A DNA stretch of 64,000 nucleotides from Nemertoderma westbladi (Eukaryota > Animalia > Xenacoelomorpha). The notes beneath the pieces were generated by a model. It was not told the DNA's origin. It worked only from the letters and a program-made list of their open reading frames with translations, and did no database searches. A program made the position numbers and the translations under genes. Location: positions 1-64,000 of the forward strand of contig JAUCBJ010008428.1 of NCBI GenBank assembly GCA_032718475.1, written 5' to 3'. The first letter of the stretch is position 1, and each line of letters begins with the position of its first letter. This document shows positions 54,201 to 64,000 of this stretch, one piece after another.

Positions 54201-56332
54201 CAATAGTTCCGTACTCCTCCCCAATAGTTCCGTACTCCTCCCCAATAGTTCCGTAGGCTACTGATCCCCAATAGTTCCGTACTCTGCCCCAATAGTTCCA
54301 CAGGCTACTGATCCCCAATAGTTCCGTACTCCTCCCCAATAGTTCCGTAGGCTACTGATCCCCAATAGTTCCGTACTCCTCCCCAATAGTTCTGTAGGCT
54401 ACTGATCCCCAATAGTTCCGTACTCCTCCCCAATAGTTCCGTACTCCTCCCCAATAGTTCCGTACTCCTCCCCAATAGTTCCGTACTCCTCCCCAATAGT
54501 TCCGTAGGCTACTGATCCCCAATAGTTCCGTACTCCTCCCCAATAGTTCCGTAGGCTACTGAACCCCAATAGTGCCGTACTCCTCCCCAATAGTTCCGTA
54601 CTCCTCCCCAATAGTTCCGTACTCCTCCCCAATAGTTCCGTACTCCTCCCAAGTTCCGTAGGCTACTGATCCCCAATAGTTCCGTACTCCTCCCCAATAG
54701 TTCCGTACTCCTCCCCAATAGTTCCGTAGGCTACTGATCCCCAATAGTTCCGTACTCTGCCCCAATAGTTCCGTAGGCTACTGATCCCCAATAGTTCCGT
54801 AGGCTACTGATCCCCAATAGTTCCGTACTCCTCCCCAATAGTTCCGTAGGCTACTGATCCCCAATAGTGCCGTACTCCTCCCCAATAGTTCCGTACTCCT
54901 CCCCAATAGTTCCGTACTCCTCCCCAATAGTTCCGTACTCCTCCCCAATAGTTCCGTAGGCTACTGATCCCCAATAGTTCCGTACTCCTCCCCAATAGTT
55001 CCGTACTCCTCCCCAATAGTTCCGTACTCCTCCCCAATAGTTCCGTACTCCTCCCCAATAGTTCCGTACTCCTCCCCAATAGTTCCGTACTCCTCCCCAA
55101 TAATTCCGTACTCCTCCCCAATAGTTCCGTTGGCTACTAATCCCCAATAGTTCCGTACTCCTCCCCAATAGTTCCGTAGGCTACTGATCCCCAATAGTTC
55201 CGTACTCCTCCCCAATAGTTCCGTACTCCTCCCCAATAGTTCCTTACTCCTCCCCAATAGTTCCGTAGGCTACTGATCCCTAATAGTTCCGTACTCCTCC
55301 CCAATAGTTCCGTACTCCTCCCCAATAGTTCCGTAATCCTCCCAAGTAGTTCCGTAGGCTACTGATCCCCAATAGTTCCGTACTCCTCCCCAATAGTTCC
55401 GTATTCCTCCCCAATAGTTCCGTAGGCTACTGATCCCCAATAGTTCCGTAGGCTACTGATCCCCAATAGTTCCGTAGGCTACTGATCCCCAATATTTCCG
55501 TAGGCTACTGATCCCCAATAGTTCCGTAGGCTACTGATCCCCAATAGTTCCGTAGGCTACATATCCCCAATAGTTCCGTACTCCTCCCCAATAGTTCCGT
55601 AGGCTACTGATCCCCAATAGTTCCGTACTCCTTCCCAATAGTTCCGTACTCCTCCCCAATAGTTCCGTACTCCTCCCCAATAGTTTCGTACTCCTCTCCA
55701 ATAGTTCCGTACTCCTCCCCAGTTCCGTAGGCTACTGATCCCCAATAGTTCCGTACTCCTCCCCAATAGTTCCGTACTCCTCCCCAATAGTTCCGTAGGC
55801 TACTGATCCCCAATACTTCCGTACTCCTCCCCAATACTTCCGTACTCCTCCCCAATAGTTCCGTACTCCTCCCCAATAGTTCCGTACTCCTCCCCAATAG
55901 TTCCGTAGGCTACTGATCCCCAATAGTTCCGTACTCCTCCCCAATAGTTCCGTACTCTTCCCCAATAGTTCCGTAGGCTACTGATCCCCAATAGTTCCGT
56001 ACTTTTAAACCACGGGATTCCGGCCAGTCACCGGATATTGGGAGTGGAGAAGGAGTACTTTCTTAAATGCAGGATTGCGGTTGAGAAAAGGTTGCATTAG
56101 TTGGATATAATCGTTTAATGTAACTTTCCTACAGAGAATTGATTGATTGAGAATAAGTTGGGCTTCCCCAAACCAATATACACCAAATATTCACAATAAT
56201 ATATGACAATATAAATTCCTACAGTACATTATTTAATTACCCACTGTTCACTTTAGATTTTAACCTAACTAATGTTCCCCAATTTCCCTCGGTCCTAGTC
56301 TCGGTACCGTGGTGTCGGTGTCGGTCGACCCT

Positions 56333-56915
56333 GTTGCGTGTCCGTCCCACCCTTCCCGAACCCCGAAGGGATCGGTCATCAGGAGAGCGGTATGGCTTGG
56401 CTAAGGGTCGGTCAAGTCGGTAGACCCGGTTGCGTGTCCGTCCCACCCTTCCCGAACCCTGAAGGGATCGGTCATCAGGAGAGCGGTATGGCTTGGCTAA
56501 GGGTCGGTCAAGTCGGTAGACCCGGTTGCGTGTCCGTCCCACCCTTCCCGAACCCCGAAGGGATCGGTCATCGGGAAAGCGGTACGGCTTGGCTAGGGGT
56601 CTGTCGAGTCGGTGGACCCGTTTGCGTGTCCATCCCACCCTTCCCGAACCCCGAAGAGATCGGTCATCAGGAAAACGGTACGGCTTGGCTAGGGGTCCGT
56701 CGGTTCATCACAGGGACCCAACCACCTAAGCTTTCCAAATCCTTTTCAGGCTCGTAGTCGCTTCGGTAGCCAAGAAGCTGCTCCAAACAGTCGGTAGGCC
56801 AGTGGAGTCCGGTCCTTTGTCATTCGACCCAGTTGCGTGTCCGTCCCACCCTTCCCGAACCCCAAAGGGATCGGTCAAAAGGAAAGCGGTACGGCTTGGC
56901 AAGGGGTTTGTCAGC
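56333..56915. repeat. 96-bp tandem repeat (about 3.8 copies from 56333) plus a diverged copy at 56832
   Basis: GTTGCGTGTCCGTCCCACCCTTCCCGAACC... starts at 56333, 56429, 56525, 56621 (T variant) and 56832. Confidence 0.95.
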
Positions 56916-57240
56916 CCATCGTGAGTCCCAACTGTTGGTAGTTTTCTGAGTCCTTATTCAGGCTCGTACTAACGCTGGTCGTGGAACCCACTCCAGGAAG
57001 GCAGTCCTCGTCAAACCCTTCTTCCGTTTAGTCAGTCGACCCATCGCGAGTCCCTGGCGTAGTCGGCAAGCTTTCCAAGTCCTTATTCAGGCTTGTAATA
57101 AATGCCAGTGACCAGGGACCGCTAAGGATCTGTCTGTCGGTTCCCGTCGCAAATCCCTGACACAAGCAGCAGACTTTCCGAGTCCTTATTCAGGTTCGTA
57201 ATAACTGCTGTTGGCCAGGGACCGCTAAGGGCAGTCCTTG
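56728..57240. repeat. Four dispersed copies of a ~25-bp motif TTCC(G/A)AGTCCTT(A)TTCAGGCTCGTA within the LTR
   Basis: Copies at about 56733, 56944, 57073 and 57176. The last two continue with a shared CCAGGGACCGCTAAGG. Confidence 0.85.
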
Positions 57241-57542
57241 TCCCTAGGCCTAGCAAGTTACCAAATCCACCTCTACAAGCCGCAAGAAGTTGGCTAGGCC
57301 TAATAGTATTCAGGTAAACCTGAGTACTGCTTAATTTTGCCTCCCACCCTTGGCCCTTAAATATCTGACATGAGTCCCGCACCCTGTAAGTCGCCCCAAT
57401 ATTCGCCCGTAAATCGCCCCCAGTCCATTGAATGTACCCAAATTCCATGTTCCCACACCAAGTATTGATATTGGAATATTCATTTCAAATAAATCCGAAA
57501 AATATTCAACTCGCGTTAAGAAAAGTTGAAATACCGCGAACA

Positions 57543-57564
57543 GTCCCCCCCCCCCCCCCCCCCC
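57543..57564 (-). other. Polypurine tract (G20 + AC) priming plus-strand synthesis
   Basis: C20 run at 57545-57564 on +, two bases from the TGTT LTR start and about 170 nt downstream of the last ORF. Confidence 0.8.
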
Positions 57565-57732
57565 AATGACCTTCGTGAGGTCTATCGGTAGATCGAGTTT
57601 GCGTAGGTCATTTCCCATATAAAAAACCCAAATTTTAATATTGCATAGTCTTGATGAATTTTTCCTAGAGTTAGTTTATGTAAATATAAAAATAAATGTT
57701 CGATATAAATGTCTCTGGAATATCCTGGTCCT

Positions 57733-58872
57733 CTATTTCTTACTCTGATACGCCTTTCTCCTCTTCGCCCGTCTACTCTCATCGATCGCCAGTGCTGGTA
57801 GGGGAGCATCAATGTCCATCGCAAGCATCGCTTCAGCTTGTCTCCTGGCGGCTCTTCCCTTTGATGGTAGCGGGATCATATCCGTCCATCTCTCCAACTC
57901 GGTAGTGCGTGCCTCTAGGAACCACTTTCCGTCACCGAATTCTTCCTTATAGGAGTATAAACGCCTAAGGATCTCGAAGGGACCGAATAATCCGGCGCTT
58001 AATAATAGATCCACGTAATGGAATGGTAGCGTCACTGTCGTATGGAGGCATTCTGGGAACGAGAAGTATCCGCACGCCATTTCTTGCGCGATATTTCGAG
58101 CGCTTCTCCGCACTTTGGTCTTTACGTGGTTATTGGCGTAGGTTTCAAACATAACCATATTTCCCATAGCTGTTACGTCCTTCGTAGGACACTTTATGTT
58201 ACAACGGGGGCATGCGGAATGTCCACGGAAGCCGCATTCTGTGCAGATGTTGTAAAGGATAGGACAAGCCAAAACATCGTGGCCCGATGTTGCGCAATAG
58301 GGACAGTAAAGTATCCCGAGGAGCTGGAGGCACAAATCGGTAACCCGATTTCTCCTTCTGTGTGGGCACTGCTCCGAGCCGCAGTTTCCACACACCTCCA
58401 GTTGCATCTCCCAGCCGAAGATTATCGGAACCGGTACGCCGGCGTAATACTCCAGTCGTCGATCGCTTTTGGGGATACTCGCCGTGGCCGGTAACCCGCG
58501 GAAAGCTGGGCTTTGGCGCAGTATGTTCTCACTTCGATAACCTTCTTTATATCCTGCCGGTCGCATCCCGGGCGCCCGTTTCTGGCGGTGGATCCATTCG
58601 GTCTGTTCGGCGTACCATCGGGTAAGTCGCATAGGGTCTTGTGGAAAGGAGGGGGCCGTTGCCACAGCTGGTCGGCGAAGAGGTGCCGGGGCGTTCGCTG
58701 GAGGGAGTCCGAGGAGATCTACGGGAGTCGGCGCAACGCTGGGACCCTTAGCAACCTGTATCGCTGAACGGGTCCGTAGGGTGCTGGTACTCGGGATCTC
58801 CGAAGACCAGTCTTCTCCCCCCGGGAACGGATATGGAGACAACCTCTGACATATGTCGCCGAAGTCATTCAA
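57733..58872 (-). pseudogene. C-terminal segment of extra ORF: Pro/Ala-rich linker plus Cys/His cluster with CCHC zinc knuckle
   Basis: CPYCATSGHDVLAC (CX2CX4HX4C) at 58305-58264, followed by CTECGFRGH and preceded by CGNC...CPH. The ORF has only a TTG start and overlaps the end of the upstream ORF in the +1 frame. Confidence 0.7.
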
Positions 58873-60356
58873 CGCGAAGGTAGTTTACTAACTCCCTAGC
58901 GGGACTACCAGAGCCAAGTGGGGTGGATATGCCTGCTTCCGTCGCAGGTTCGGCCGAGGCAACCCGTTTGGCGGCCGGTTCGTACGCAACTTCCGGATCG
59001 AGTTGTCGCTTTGGGGTGGACAGTAGAACACCTTCCTGTAGCCATAATTCCTCCCCATCCAAAGATATCAGTGGTTCCTCTGCACCGAGGAGATCAGCAA
59101 TCGTAGGGATGTCGAACGGTCCATTCTCGTCCCAGGATGCGATGACGTGGAGCGTTTTCGTCTCTCCCGGTGGAATATTCTCTACCGCTTTGAACGCGTG
59201 GTCGATAACTTGATTCGACTCATAGTCGATAAAGGATCTAGGAACCGCCTTAATGAGATTATCGAGAGTCTTACAGATGAACTTGGCAACTGTGTATGAT
59301 TCCATTACGACGTAGATATAGTTCCGTCGGTCCGGGTTCTCCCATTTGTGGTGGATCGTCCACTTTCTTTCTACGTCCTTCCAACGACTCTCTCGCTCAC
59401 TCTTTATCTCTATTTCCGGGTACCCACCATATATCTTATTATAATCCTGGAATTTCTGAGGTTTAAAGTCTATACCGCCGTTTAGCACCGCGAGGTAGCC
59501 GATACCGGATTTCGTCCGTCTCACCTCCCGGAGTCCACACATGATTTCAGTGGATCGTAACCAGGCTAACAGTGTTTGGGTATCAACGCAATGACTAATG
59601 GCGTTGAGATCTTCTCGACGGTTTCTTCCGAAAGGAGCGTTAGCGTAGTTGTTTCAGACGTCCGCCTTTATATCTGACCCAATTTTAATGACATCGAAAT
59701 CAAATAGGATCTGTTGGATCTCCGGTGGTAATAGCCAGATCGCTCCGGCTGTCTGCACCTCCTGATTGGGTGTCGGGAATATTCGACATATCAACACCAG
59801 ACCATCTAGGGTTCCGAGGACGATGACCAATGATCGACCGTATTCCTTCGTCCCATACTTCTCCTGGTAGTCGTCTCGATTCTGGATAACTGATATACGT
59901 TCCTCTCGCAGCGTCGCTGTACACTCCGCTAGGTTTCCCCAGTGGGTGAGGTACGTACGTACTCTTGTCGTCGACGAAACTTTGGCATCGCGCCAACGTA
60001 ATCGCTTTCGAGGTGGGCGTCGCGTTTCCCTCGTTGTCGTATATCAAACATCGGGATTTGTAGACGCTTTGCCGGAACGCATCCCAGAATGACAACTCCG
60101 CTCCTCCGGTTGCCTTTGCTTTCCGAGTTCTTTTCAGTCTCGTACTAGCATCGGACAACCGGAGCTCTCGTAGATTACGGGAATCCGGTCCCTCTCGCCC
60201 GGAGAATTTAATGATTCGCACATTCTCGGATATCAGGGCATTCCATTCTGTATCAAAGTTAGGAGATCCAGGCTGTGGATATTCCAGTAAATCTAGTGTA
60301 TTACGTAGTTCGCCGAGAATTTGGCGATTTGGGTCCATATTTTCCATTATGTCCAT
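58865..60356 (-). pseudogene. N-terminal segment of extra ORF: DEDD-superfamily (WRN/RNase D/EXD-like) 3'-5' exonuclease domain with one frameshift and one nonsense codon
   Basis: Manual translation. ExoI-like LIYDNEG (D 60038-60036, E 60032-60030). The +1 frame continues VIVLGTLDGLVLI...LPPEIQQILFDFDVIKIGSDIKADV* (ExoII-like; TGA at 59656-59654), then in the same frame CVDTQTL...GIGYLAVLNGGIDFKP...KWENPDRRNYIYVVMESY (ExoIII-like, 59314-59294). Confidence 0.65.
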
Positions 60357-60635
60357 TGCAAATTTAAGTAAGTTAATTATAAATCCAGAAAGTCTGATTC
60401 TATAGTGACTGCAGAATAATTCAGTTTATTTGTAATTCAGTTTATTAATTATTATTGCTATATAGGCATCTACCATCTTATTGCTACTATATTCAGTATT
60501 TACAGTTACTATAGCTATACAATTATATCCAACCAGTTTTTGACTTTTTATGTCCTCTTCTTTTTCCAATTCTTTTCCTTTCTACATTTTATACATTTTT
60601 TTGTCTTTTTTCATTTCTCATTTATTACTCGTTAT

Positions 60636-60770
60636 ATTTCATTATTTCTTTCCACATTTCATCATTTATTTCCACATTTCATCATTTATTTCCACATTTC
60701 ATCATTTATTTCCACATTTCATCATTATTTCCACATTTATTTCACATTTCATTTATTTCAATTTCATCAT
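60636..60770. repeat. 20-bp AT-rich minisatellite TCCACATTTCATCATTTATT, about 4 copies plus degenerate flanks
   Basis: Exact period of 20 at 60651-60726. Confidence 0.95.
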
Positions 60771-60944
60771 TGGGGTCATAGCCCCCTGGCTATCATCATT
60801 TGTTATAAGCGCAGCACCAGGGTGCGCATCATTACATTTTCATCATCATACGCGTCATCATTCAGTTTATAGTAGGGTTGTCTGTTTCTTTTCATCATTT
60901 CCAACTACATTCAATCATCTTCTTTTGGAAATTTTCGTTGTGGA

Positions 60945-61370
60945 AGGGTGTTACGTGGCAATCTGGGATCTACAGCTGGGCTAGTTACACCGCCTATGCC
61001 CCAAAGTGCATATGTAACGGACAATGAAGACGCTGGAAGTGAAGTCACGTGGAATGCACCAGGGACCCACCAGAATAACACTACCAACAACATAAAGCTC
61101 AGCCGACAAAGTCATGTGGGATGGGGTTACGCAACATTCTGGGATCTACAGCTGGACTAGTTACACCACCTACGCCCCAAAATCCACGCAACGGTCCCAC
61201 CAGAATAACGCAACTGAGAAACATAAAACCTCTATCGACGAAGTCATGTGGATGCACCATGGACCCACCAGAATAACGGGATAGAGGGGGTGTTGCGCGG
61301 CAATCCGGGATCTACAGCTGGACTAGTTACACCGCCTACGCCCCGAACTGTGCACGCAACGGACAATACA
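60945..61370. repeat. Three diverged ~170-bp repeats in the pol-ORF3 spacer
   Basis: GGGATCTACAGCTGG(G/A)CTAGTTACACC at 60965, 61141 and 61307. CCCACCAGAATAAC also recurs three times. Confidence 0.9.
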
Positions 61371-61637
61371 ATACAACACAATGGATACAATGAATTCCAC
61401 TTCAAATCTTTACCATTTCCAATAATCCAATGTAGTTGGTCCCGATGACCAAAATCAGGGTAAACAATACATAAACGACCCTGCATCAGTCGAAACATCT
61501 GCAGGGTGACGCTGGACTCCACATAACACACGAGGAAACACAAATACCATTGCGTGGTTACAGTTGGTTTAAGGGGGGTCCATTATTCATTGTCGGTAAA
61601 TCACAGTTAAAGAGTTTGTCAACAGGATGAGAAGGGT

Positions 61638-61835
61638 TTAAACGGGTTTAGCATTGTCACCAATGTCTGCAGCAGGATCCGGAGTAGGGAACTTATCCCC
61701 TCTCGTAGAGTCACCACTGTCATTGCCTTCAAGAAGGCACAGCCTCTGGATAGGGCGTTGGTAGTGGCCCTTTGCCGTTCATATCGTCACAGTTCTCGCA
61801 AGTGCCACTGTTCTCGGCCGGTACACTGCTTTATT
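61638..61835 (-). pseudogene. pol: C-terminal tail of BEL/Pao pol (integrase-distal, DUF5641-like)
   Basis: Manual translation AVY...LARTVTI*TAKGHYQRPIQRLCLLE (RPIQRLCLLE at 61757-61728) matches the typical BEL pol end VR-x-V-x-V-K-T-x-x-G-x-x-x-R-P-I-x-K-L-C-x-L. Internal TGA at 61781-61779, terminal TAA at 61640-61638. Not in the ORF track. Confidence 0.8.
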
Positions 61836-61959
61836 TCCAGGGCTCGGTTCGCTACGAATGTGGTGTGTCGCCATGATGGTGAATGGAGGTCGGTCACCGA
61901 ACAATAACCCACGGAGGTTGCGTTCTCTTTGATCTGGCATTTAGGGAGATATGTATAGG

Positions 61960-64000
61960 TGTCGGTAGTCTCCTCTTTGATGCCGCAGAGTGTCCATCCC
62001 ATGATAGTGCGCTCTGCTTAAAAATCGTCGTCCGGCTTTACGGATCGGGCTACGTTTCCGGTTGGTATATGTAATTCCGGTGTGTCAAGTCCGATTAATA
62101 GGGTAATTCGGTTTACGTCCAACGGTGGGCATCGTAGATCTACATCTTCCCAGTCTAGCTGTATGAGGGGTGCAGATGATTGTTCAGATGATTGTCGGAA
62201 CAGCACTCGGAGATCAGTGTGTACCAGAGCGTTCTTGATCGTCAGTTTGACCATCTCGTAACCCTTCCTATCCCCTTCCATCTTGAGTTGTACCTCCCTG
62301 GACTCCACTTCTCTATGGTCGGTGATAGTTTGTATGGGCCGCTTGCAAGGTTCGTAATCTAGGCCTAGTTGTTCGAGGAAATCCCGGTCGATGATGGTTC
62401 CGTCCGACCCGTTGTCAAGGAACGCGAGTGTTGTTAAGGATTTCCCGACCCCTTGGATTCTTACTCTGATCACTTTGGCGAAGACCATGTAACGGCGGTT
62501 TAGAAGATTGACCGTAGCTGATATACTGGTCACGTGTGATACATCGGTGGCGGTTTTAAATGGATTGGTTTCCCTCCGCTGAATCGTCCGGGTACCCTTA
62601 GAGACGTGATTCGTTTCTCCTTTCCATTTGGATTCAATCCGGAATGGTAGGGTGGTAAAATCGAAGTTCGCAGGGATGTGGAGGAGTGTGTGATGGCGTA
62701 GGTCATTACAGACCGCGCAGCATGATCTTTGGTCGCAATCATGGACGTAGTGACCTGTTCCGAGATACCAGAAGCATCCTCGGTGTTTCATGATTGCCTC
62801 GAAGCGTGGAATGAGTTCAGCAAACTGGAACTTTCTGCAGAATTCCACCTTGTGTTTCTCCCTGCTGAAGAGACATAGAAGGGAGGTTGTGGTGCCTTCC
62901 CTTTCGGGTGCCCAATTCGCTAGATAACACGCCCATTCCTCAGCTGATGTCGGTTCCTCGTAGTCCTCGTCGTCGGAATCCTCGGCCATGGTGATGGCCA
63001 TCGTACTCATCAGAGGGGGACGGAATCTCGGTTTCGGAGTGGGTGCCCTGCTCCTAGAGTTGTTCTCTATTCCGTCTAACTTGGAGAGACTTTGTTTGGA
63101 GAACATCGAGTCATTCATGGCTTCGGAGATATCATCTAGGAATGCCGACATTTCGAGGAAACTGGGATCCCGATCCGGGTGTCTGCATCGGAGATCTACG
63201 CATTTATATGCCCATTTGCTTTGCAGCCATCCGGGGAACTTTCGGGCAATCTGTCGGAGGTTTAAAATGTTGTTTACTTGTTCTTCCTTGTTTAATGGTT
63301 TTTAAGTGTAGTAGGCATCTTTCACAGAGTCCGAGAACTCTTGGATATTCTGTGGGTCCCCTAGGGATCCAGCGTCCTGTATCAGATTTTCGAGCATCTT
63401 ATTAATTATAGTTCCGATGTTTCCGTACCTTTTATCTAGAGTTTTCCATGCGTCGTGGTATGCTTCGTGAGATCCTCCTTCGAAACATTTAATGATTCGA
63501 CGTGGTTTGTCACCCAGGTATTGGGATAAATATACCAGTTTTTGTGCGTCGGTTATATCTGTTGAACCGATCTGAGCGAAGAACCGTTTCTTAAATCCGA
63601 GGTAATTGATGGGGTCTCCCTCGAAGGTGCGGATCTCCATTTTGGGCATAGCCAGGCAGTTTTCCAAGGCTCGGATGATGCCGACGTCGTCTGAACTGGA
63701 ATGACTAGGAGGATTATAATTACTAACACTCTCTCCCATGCACGATGGATCGATGAGAAGTGGAGTTTTAATGATGACGCGGTTACGGATTTTCGATGTG
63801 GATGTGAACGGATTGTTGGATCGAGGGGTGGCGTCCCGTTCCGAGTCCTTTTCAGGCTCGTACTGGGGAACGCTCGGTGCCGTGGGATTGGATGGGAAAT
63901 AAGGTTCCTCATTCTTAAGCGTAACCGGTGGGGGGTGGAATACTGGTGCTTGTGCCGATAACGTGGACCGTATGTTTGGCGGAAACTCAGGTTTCGGGGG
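61960..64000 (-). pseudogene. gag: BEL/Pao gag-protease, one reading frame with two nonsense codons; open at the window edge
   Basis: The frame is open from 64000 through MPKMEIRTFEGDPINYLGFKKRF...QKLVYLSQYL...AWKTLDKRYG (DUF1759-like). In-frame TAA at 63304-63302, then IARKFPGWLQSKW, Cys/His boxes (CLFS and CFWY each appear to have lost a Cys; CAVC..HHTLLH intact), protease AFLDNGSDGT (D 62416-62414), in-frame TAA at 62020-62018, then AERTIMGWTLCG. Confidence 0.92.

Follow-up and report, generated by a model that had tools for sequence, protein, structure and literature searches.

A probable exonuclease-type gene with a zinc-knuckle cluster in the env position of a BEL/Pao-type retrotransposon of Nemertoderma westbladi

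The window analyzed here, a stretch of 64,000 nucleotides from Nemertoderma westbladi, is filled from position 1 to ~56000 by a satellite (at least 56 kb) in which 21- and 26-bp units interleave, with a strong strand skew. Its last 8 kb are occupied by a minus-strand LTR element, which directly adjoins the satellite block 1-56000. The element harbours gag and protease genes, scraps of pol, a non-coding spacer, an extra gene (ORF3), a polypurine tract (PPT) and an LTR-like region (Table 1). No tRNA gene was found in 56000-64000.

Table 1 Features of the LTR element and its extra gene, in order along the minus strand
Feature	Position	Strand	Basis or remark
gag with DUF1759	63302..64000	-	PF03564, E 8.4e-11; cut by the window edge, premature stop at its end
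gag zinc fingers and aspartyl protease	62018..63301	-	Asp_protease_2, E 3.6e-05, over the cut-off; ends in a stop
pol remnants	61641..62017	-	post-protease stretch, RNase H scrap, integrase C-terminal scrap
non-coding spacer	60357..61640	-	20-bp and ~80-bp repeats; 1.3 kb between pol remnants and extra gene
candidate splice acceptor	ends at 60409	-	in the spacer; sequence-based candidate
extra gene (ORF3)	57733..60356	-	872 codons as one frame; here with two frameshifts and one stop
N-terminal ~100 residues	60050..60356	-	no known family; ATG at 60356
probable 3'-5' exonuclease domain (DEDDy type), containing long insertions	59290..60050	-	custom profile
putative ExoI Asp and Glu codons	60038 and 60032	-	block chain on YDNE
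break 1, frame-shifting 4-bp triplication	59951..59962	-	absent from the sister records checked
putative ExoII Asp codon	59662	-	block chain on KIGSDIKAD
break 2, premature in-frame stop	59654..59656	-	private to this copy
putative ExoIII Tyr and Glu (replacing Asp) codons	59314 and 59302	-	block chain on YVVME
break 3, single frameshift between nuclease and knuckle halves	58882..58940	-	sister contigs
Cys/His cluster	58189..58392	-	12 Cys and 3 His in 68 residues; flanking knuckle-like units
polypurine tract (G20)	57545..57564	-	AC, then TG at 57542
LTR-like region	56030..57542	-	starts with TG; 96-bp and ~103-130-bp internal repeats; high contig depth

The gag gene carries DUF1759, which we take to be a marker of BEL/Pao gag. 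A gag of this kind, followed by zinc fingers (three Cys/His units are visible) and an aspartyl protease, points to a host element of the BEL/Pao type (Belpaoviridae). Reverse transcriptase (RT) is absent from this copy, as is most of RNase H and integrase. The remaining scraps, presumably RNase H followed by integrase, were named by motif resemblance, and no Pfam match was obtained for the pol remnants. Because gag and protease end in stops and the RT is missing, the copy in the window is a dead, internally deleted one. Two internal deletions within the pol remnants have brought the protease, the scrap of RNase H and the end of the integrase next to one another. One contig from a public run (X5) aligns only over 61902-62170 and has ~300 further letters, as expected of a copy with a longer pol.

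Coding potential of the extra gene is distributed over four frame pieces on the minus strand. The first (60356-59700) encodes 218 aa from an ATG in a good initiation context, and the second (60043-59654) overlaps it in another frame. The third (59653-58865) is 262 aa long from stop to stop, or 225 from its own ATG, and the fourth (58884-57733) measures 383 aa from stop to stop. An earlier note on this DNA had described three minus-strand ORFs here; all three were found in place, with the second piece linking the first two.

Sister copies were sought in public contig sets carrying the same species label (4 runs from at most 3 samples and 3 studies), in which the element family is present at high depth. 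Across break 1, the triplication that the earlier note had recognized as a frame lesion, all 8 records checked among those listed differ in length from the window by an amount that restores the frame. The single in-frame stop that had been noted ahead of the 225-aa ORF (break 2) is equally real, and is read with another letter in 98.6-100% of the contig depth in each of the three high-depth runs (X1, X2, X3). One or two further lesions had been expected near 58870-58750. There is instead a single one, break 3, because the records spanning it have a frame-restoring length (3/3 listed short spanning records, from X1 and X2, and one X5 joint) and 58488-58881 is free of gaps in the 3 records covering it. 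One long X5 record (57688-59605, 25 gaps), the net length of which does not by itself fit the frame, was left out of this count since it includes 3' untranslated sequence. As each break is missing from sister contigs, the sister copies imply one frame of 872 codons starting at the ATG, in agreement with the ~870-codon gene proposed before; among the contigs listed, none spans the whole gene. Indels in sister contigs at 60368 and 60430 lie upstream of the ATG.

The differences between this copy and its sisters were used to analyze selection. In 59280-60060, a region that takes in the reading frame as far as break 1, the middle piece and what follows the stop, 71 positions differ from the window in at least 45% of the depth. 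Forty of these were listed, and 39 were scored after dropping the position at the break 2 stop. Synonymous changes make up 24 of these 39 listed majority differences, against 29% expected at the same transition share (p 3e-5), corresponding to a rough dN/dS of 0.26; in the two wrong frames only 4/39 and 9/39 are synonymous. The nuclease part of the extra gene was therefore under purifying selection. Neutral dN/dS among copies had been named in the earlier note as an outcome that would speak against the gene, and the nuclease part departs from it; in the knuckle half, synonymous changes account for 7 of the 14 listed differences that were available (p 0.07), these 14 being drawn from 40 listed of about 1340.

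The extra gene occupies the env position, between the pol remnants and the PPT. This is where it had been placed before, except that the pol gene supposed to precede it is mostly deleted and that the spacer intervenes. Its stop sits 170 bases ahead of the PPT. A 24-25-nt motif, for which shuffled sequence yields no copies (0 expected by chance), ties the gene to the element. It occurs on the minus strand four times in the LTR-like region (56733-56756, 56944-56968, 57073-57097 and 57176-57200), with single copies in gag (63839-63862) and in the 5' part of ORF3 (60121-60144). Since its codon phase in gag differs from that in ORF3, the motif is a nucleotide signal rather than a trace of protein homology, possibly a protein-binding or packaging signal. 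One X5 contig (57515-57821) runs from the end of ORF3 across the PPT, with only 27 letters reaching into the LTR. Among the contigs listed, none joins ORF3 to gag unambiguously. Joints from 60153 or 57169 to 63837 were excluded from the evidence, as they coincide with the shared motif and have fewer than 30 letters on a side. Joints between motif copies are also seen in sister contigs and could have arisen by recombination or from misalignment.

The first ~100 residues of the predicted protein gave no usable match in an Atlas feature search. The nuclease part that follows had been described as carrying the ordered, established motifs of DEDDy nucleases. Library searches do not establish this. 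Pfam assigned no family to any extra-gene piece or to the read-through (E up to 1 or 10), and PDB sequence searches with the pieces gave a best E of only 0.19 or worse. Two word-indexed searches, one over 2076 candidates of length 198-632 and one over 4223 candidates of length 210-671, returned no homologue at E up to 0.01, and the 262-aa piece had no homologue among 1.84 billion representatives. No related locus was detected in viral contigs (2 candidates) or metagenome contigs (20 candidates), and a motif scan of metagenomes gave 0 matches. Single-sequence fold predictions were of low confidence, with pLDDT values of 33.0 (the part after break 1) and 36.6.

Two custom profiles were built from natural bacterial enzymes. 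The first, from 71 RNase D and NrnC domains, was not significant locally on the query (170/1000 shuffles scored as well); it picked the same ExoI and ExoII places as the second profile, a result reached by 1/300 shuffles. The second was built from 64 stand-alone bacterial exonucleases; the best PDB matches of its 47-member alignment are WRN (1e-29), mut-7 and EXD2. Against the read-through it gave a local P of 0.0012 on the ExoII stretch, a level reached by 3/2000 shuffles. Whole-profile (glocal) alignment yielded z values of 1.2-2.9 over four gap settings, with ExoIII missed in one of the two alignments displayed, and hhalign probabilities were 0.9-2.5%. This WRN-class profile fits the query better than the RNase D/NrnC profile, an assignment that is soft because only bacterial profiles were used.

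Eight ordered ungapped blocks, chosen after seeing the query and with three scoring schemes tried, score 48.5. This is above all 3000 shuffles (maximum 41.2) and all 189 real protein windows of non-DEDD origin (maximum 37.5), and falls at the low end of the 71 true RNase D/NrnC domains (46-84). In the block chain ExoI, ExoII and ExoIII fall into register unaided; the three catalytic blocks alone are matched by 7/3000 shuffles and 0/189 windows, the ExoIII block contributing only 0.2 bits. The resulting catalytic motif reads D-E-D-E. ExoIII has the form YxxxE, with the Glu that had already been noted in YVVME standing where the canonical last Asp is expected. None of the five catalytic-site codons is touched by the listed 40 of 71 majority differences, and three long insertions lie within the putative domain.

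Judged by these alignments, the nuclease part very probably adopts a DEDDy fold, and the custom WRN-class profile gives moderate support to its identity as a DEDDy domain. The product of the extra gene is taken to work like a DEDDy nuclease, but membership of the family is not established, the Pfam score being below threshold and the last acid other than Asp. Exonuclease activity with Glu as the last acid is predicted, with somewhat better than even confidence. A 19-residue window of the nuclease part reaches a Kyte-Doolittle value of 2.1 and aligns to beta strands of the profile; it may, from its hydropathy, be a membrane segment.

The C-terminal half consists of a proline-rich linker and the Cys/His cluster, ~300 residues lying between nuclease and cluster. 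The CX2CX4HX4C spacing of the CCHC zinc knuckle (PF00098) is matched exactly by one unit (residues 194-207 of the 383-aa piece), with a near unit at 214-228. The CCHC knuckles claimed before thus come down to one canonical knuckle within a Cys/His cluster that stays below Pfam thresholds (zf-CCHC_4, E 9, not significant). Atlas features of this piece resemble CCHC/Air-like clusters at 0.75-0.87, all below 0.9 and treated as leads only. In spite of its position, the gene does not encode an env glycoprotein. This identity was rejected because a signal peptide and a terminal membrane anchor are absent (the maximum Kyte-Doolittle value over 19 residues is 0.11 in the N-terminal piece and 1.26, with a basic tail, in the C-terminal piece); Pfam likewise detected no env family among the extra-gene pieces.

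DEDDy ORF3s with a DEED motif have been described in the bdelloid Juno and Vesta LTR retrotransposons and in Athena/Terminon elements, activity being undemonstrated (Rodriguez et al. 2017, PMC5408684). The rotifer precedent cited in the earlier note is thus borne out by the available text of that paper. As described there, the Juno and Vesta ORF3s likewise occupy the env position behind pol as separate ORFs, lack envelope features and encode a DEDDy-type exonuclease with a variant acid motif. The families named in the sections at hand are Juno, Vesta, TelKA and Mag, the string 'Pao' turning up solely as part of an author's name (PMC5408684), whereas the host here is of the BEL/Pao type with a DUF1759 gag. 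The motifs, compared by description only, also differ (D-E-D-E here, DEED in the rotifer ORF3s). Furthermore, the gene described here has 872 codons and a CCHC cluster, whereas the accessible part of the rotifer study reports a Cys-His-Cys motif in Vesta2/5 ORFs and a DEDDy-GDSL fusion, and does not mention a knuckle fusion (PMC5408684).

A DEDD exonuclease followed by C-terminal CCHC fingers is known from Trypanosoma brucei RND (TbRND; PDB 7c42/7c45). According to the consulted text, TbRND is a cellular protein shorter than 400 residues in which a 28-residue linker leads to four regular knuckles, and deletion of its CCHC domain nearly abolishes RNA binding and lowers activity (PMC7797062). 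The present protein differs in the longer distance between nuclease and cluster and in having one canonical knuckle, and no homology to TbRND was detected. It resembles the WRN exonuclease/EXD2/mut-7 class (PF01612, cd06141-like) in the order and content of ExoI, ExoII, ExoIII and the intervening blocks, but differs in scoring below every library threshold, in its three long insertions and in the Asp to Glu change in ExoIII. The giant Burro/GYPSM1 LTR elements of planarians have also captured accessory domains, among them an AIR1-like zinc motif; these elements belong to the gypsy group, carry the domains inside the polyprotein and have an N-terminus treated as Gag with CCHC knuckles, no exonuclease being named in the available text (PMC6431247).

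The earlier note knew of no large nuclease-knuckle fusion in this position. A literature search, lacking most subscription papers and Repbase, found neither a DEDD ORF in BEL/Pao elements nor a knuckle fusion in an ORF3; as a protein architecture, the combination does have a cellular precedent in TbRND, as far as the consulted part of its description goes (PMC7797062). The BEL/Pao host and the knuckle fusion, as read from the sequence, likely extend the rotifer-type DEDDy ORF3 arrangement to another retrotransposon group.

Taken as a whole, there is about an even chance that the extra gene is an accessory gene of a high-copy BEL/Pao family encoding a likely DEDDy-fold 3'-5' exonuclease with a zinc-knuckle cluster, directed at RNA. 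It would be made as a soluble protein from a spliced subgenomic RNA, like other env-slot ORF3s, using the candidate acceptor in the spacer. The CCHC cluster is predicted to bind single-stranded RNA and to feed its 3' end to the two-metal nuclease, and the DEDDy-fold domain would trim this RNA in the 3'-5' direction; the knuckles are modelled as RNA-binding because the CCHC fingers of TbRND bind RNA and raise cleavage. By this analogy RNA is probably the substrate. The benefit to the element would most likely lie in the trimming or removal of RNAs that restrain it, such as small RNAs of the host, the precursors of these, or by-products of the element's RNA, the target being a guess. A bolder version, which we regard as unlikely, is that the BEL/Pao family encodes a counter-silencing ribonuclease that destroys or mis-trims host piRNAs or siRNAs. 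An active D-E-D-E exonuclease and a knuckle adaptor would be combined in one chain (Rrp6-plus-Air or RND-like), and the 24-25-nt motif would act in cis as a signal belonging to this system.

The fold could also have been retained for a catalytically weak or dead pseudo-nuclease that, paired with the knuckles, would bind RNA or act as a decoy. Egalitarian is an example of an inactive DEDD-type adaptor. EXD1 and Maelstrom have been described as inactive DEDD derivatives (PMC5408684, sections at hand). The Glu as last acid, the negligible score of its YVVME context and the long insertions inside the domain are in line with such a role. On the other hand, the ExoI Asp and Glu, the ExoII Asp and the ExoIII Tyr have all been kept, the change in ExoIII is from acid to acid, and the listed majority differences spare all five catalytic-site codons. 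Moreover, the rotifer ORF3s with their variant DEED motif are described as possibly active in the same available text (PMC5408684). A pseudo-nuclease is held to be unlikely.

The nuclease of the preferred, RNA-directed reading might alternatively be active on DNA, trimming or proofreading cDNA ends or clearing single-stranded DNA in the particle, with knuckles that act like nucleocapsid. The profile that fits best belongs to the WRN/EXD2 class, of which WRN acts on DNA (PMC5408684, available part), and env-slot proteins have been tied to the replication cycle. That class assignment carries the softness of its bacterial profiles, and the only solved DEDD-plus-CCHC enzyme seen among the PDB matches of the profile, TbRND, is an RNase with RNA-binding fingers as its accessible description has it (PMC7797062). 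A further argument comes from the host group. To our knowledge, replication of most BEL/Pao elements does not involve a gene of this kind, and a DNA-directed role is considered improbable.

It is a little more improbable still that ORF3 is a real accessory gene of unrelated fold in which the DEDD motifs are chance look-alikes. This would agree with the blank library searches, the low-confidence fold models and glocal z values as low as 1.2. It is opposed by the ordered-block score, which exceeds every shuffle and every real window, by the rarity of the catalytic blocks alone, and by the recovery of the same ExoI and ExoII places with the RNase D/NrnC profile. Finally, it is very improbable that an unrelated element, or a fragment of a host gene, came to lie between pol and PPT by chance nesting: contig depth does vary along the element and no listed contig joins ORF3 unambiguously to gag, but the gene lies on the same strand, stops shortly before the PPT, shares the motif with gag and LTR, is joined to the PPT by the X5 contig, and was found to lack convincing terminal repeats of an independent insertion, the signature by which the earlier note would have recognized a nested insert. 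As possible terminal repeats, an 18-nt inverted repeat (56100/60516) was rejected, since 8 kb of sequence should by estimate contain about two exact inverted matches of 12 bases.

A selected, high-copy BEL/Pao example of a probable exonuclease ORF3, fused to a putative RNA-binding knuckle cluster and lacking any homologue in the collections searched, suggests that RNA-trimming enzymes have been captured repeatedly by animal retrotransposons. It would also provide a concrete protein with which to ask whether elements fight small-RNA silencing with nucleases of their own, and its variant last acid makes it a test case for distinguishing active from dead DEDD domains.

Contig depth is uneven along the element and is highest in the spacer at 60806-61873 and in the LTR-like region. 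In the spacer interval, which contains three ~80-bp repeats, depth exceeds that of the neighbouring genes, above all in run X5; this interval may be a passenger of non-autonomous derivatives or a separate repeat. The LTR-like region (~1.3-1.5 kb), the far end of which is not fixed as the other LTR is outside the window, contains four to five 96-bp tandem units at 56224-56920. Upstream of the candidate splice acceptor lie five 20-bp purine-rich tandem units (60616-60735), the length of which varies among sister contigs.
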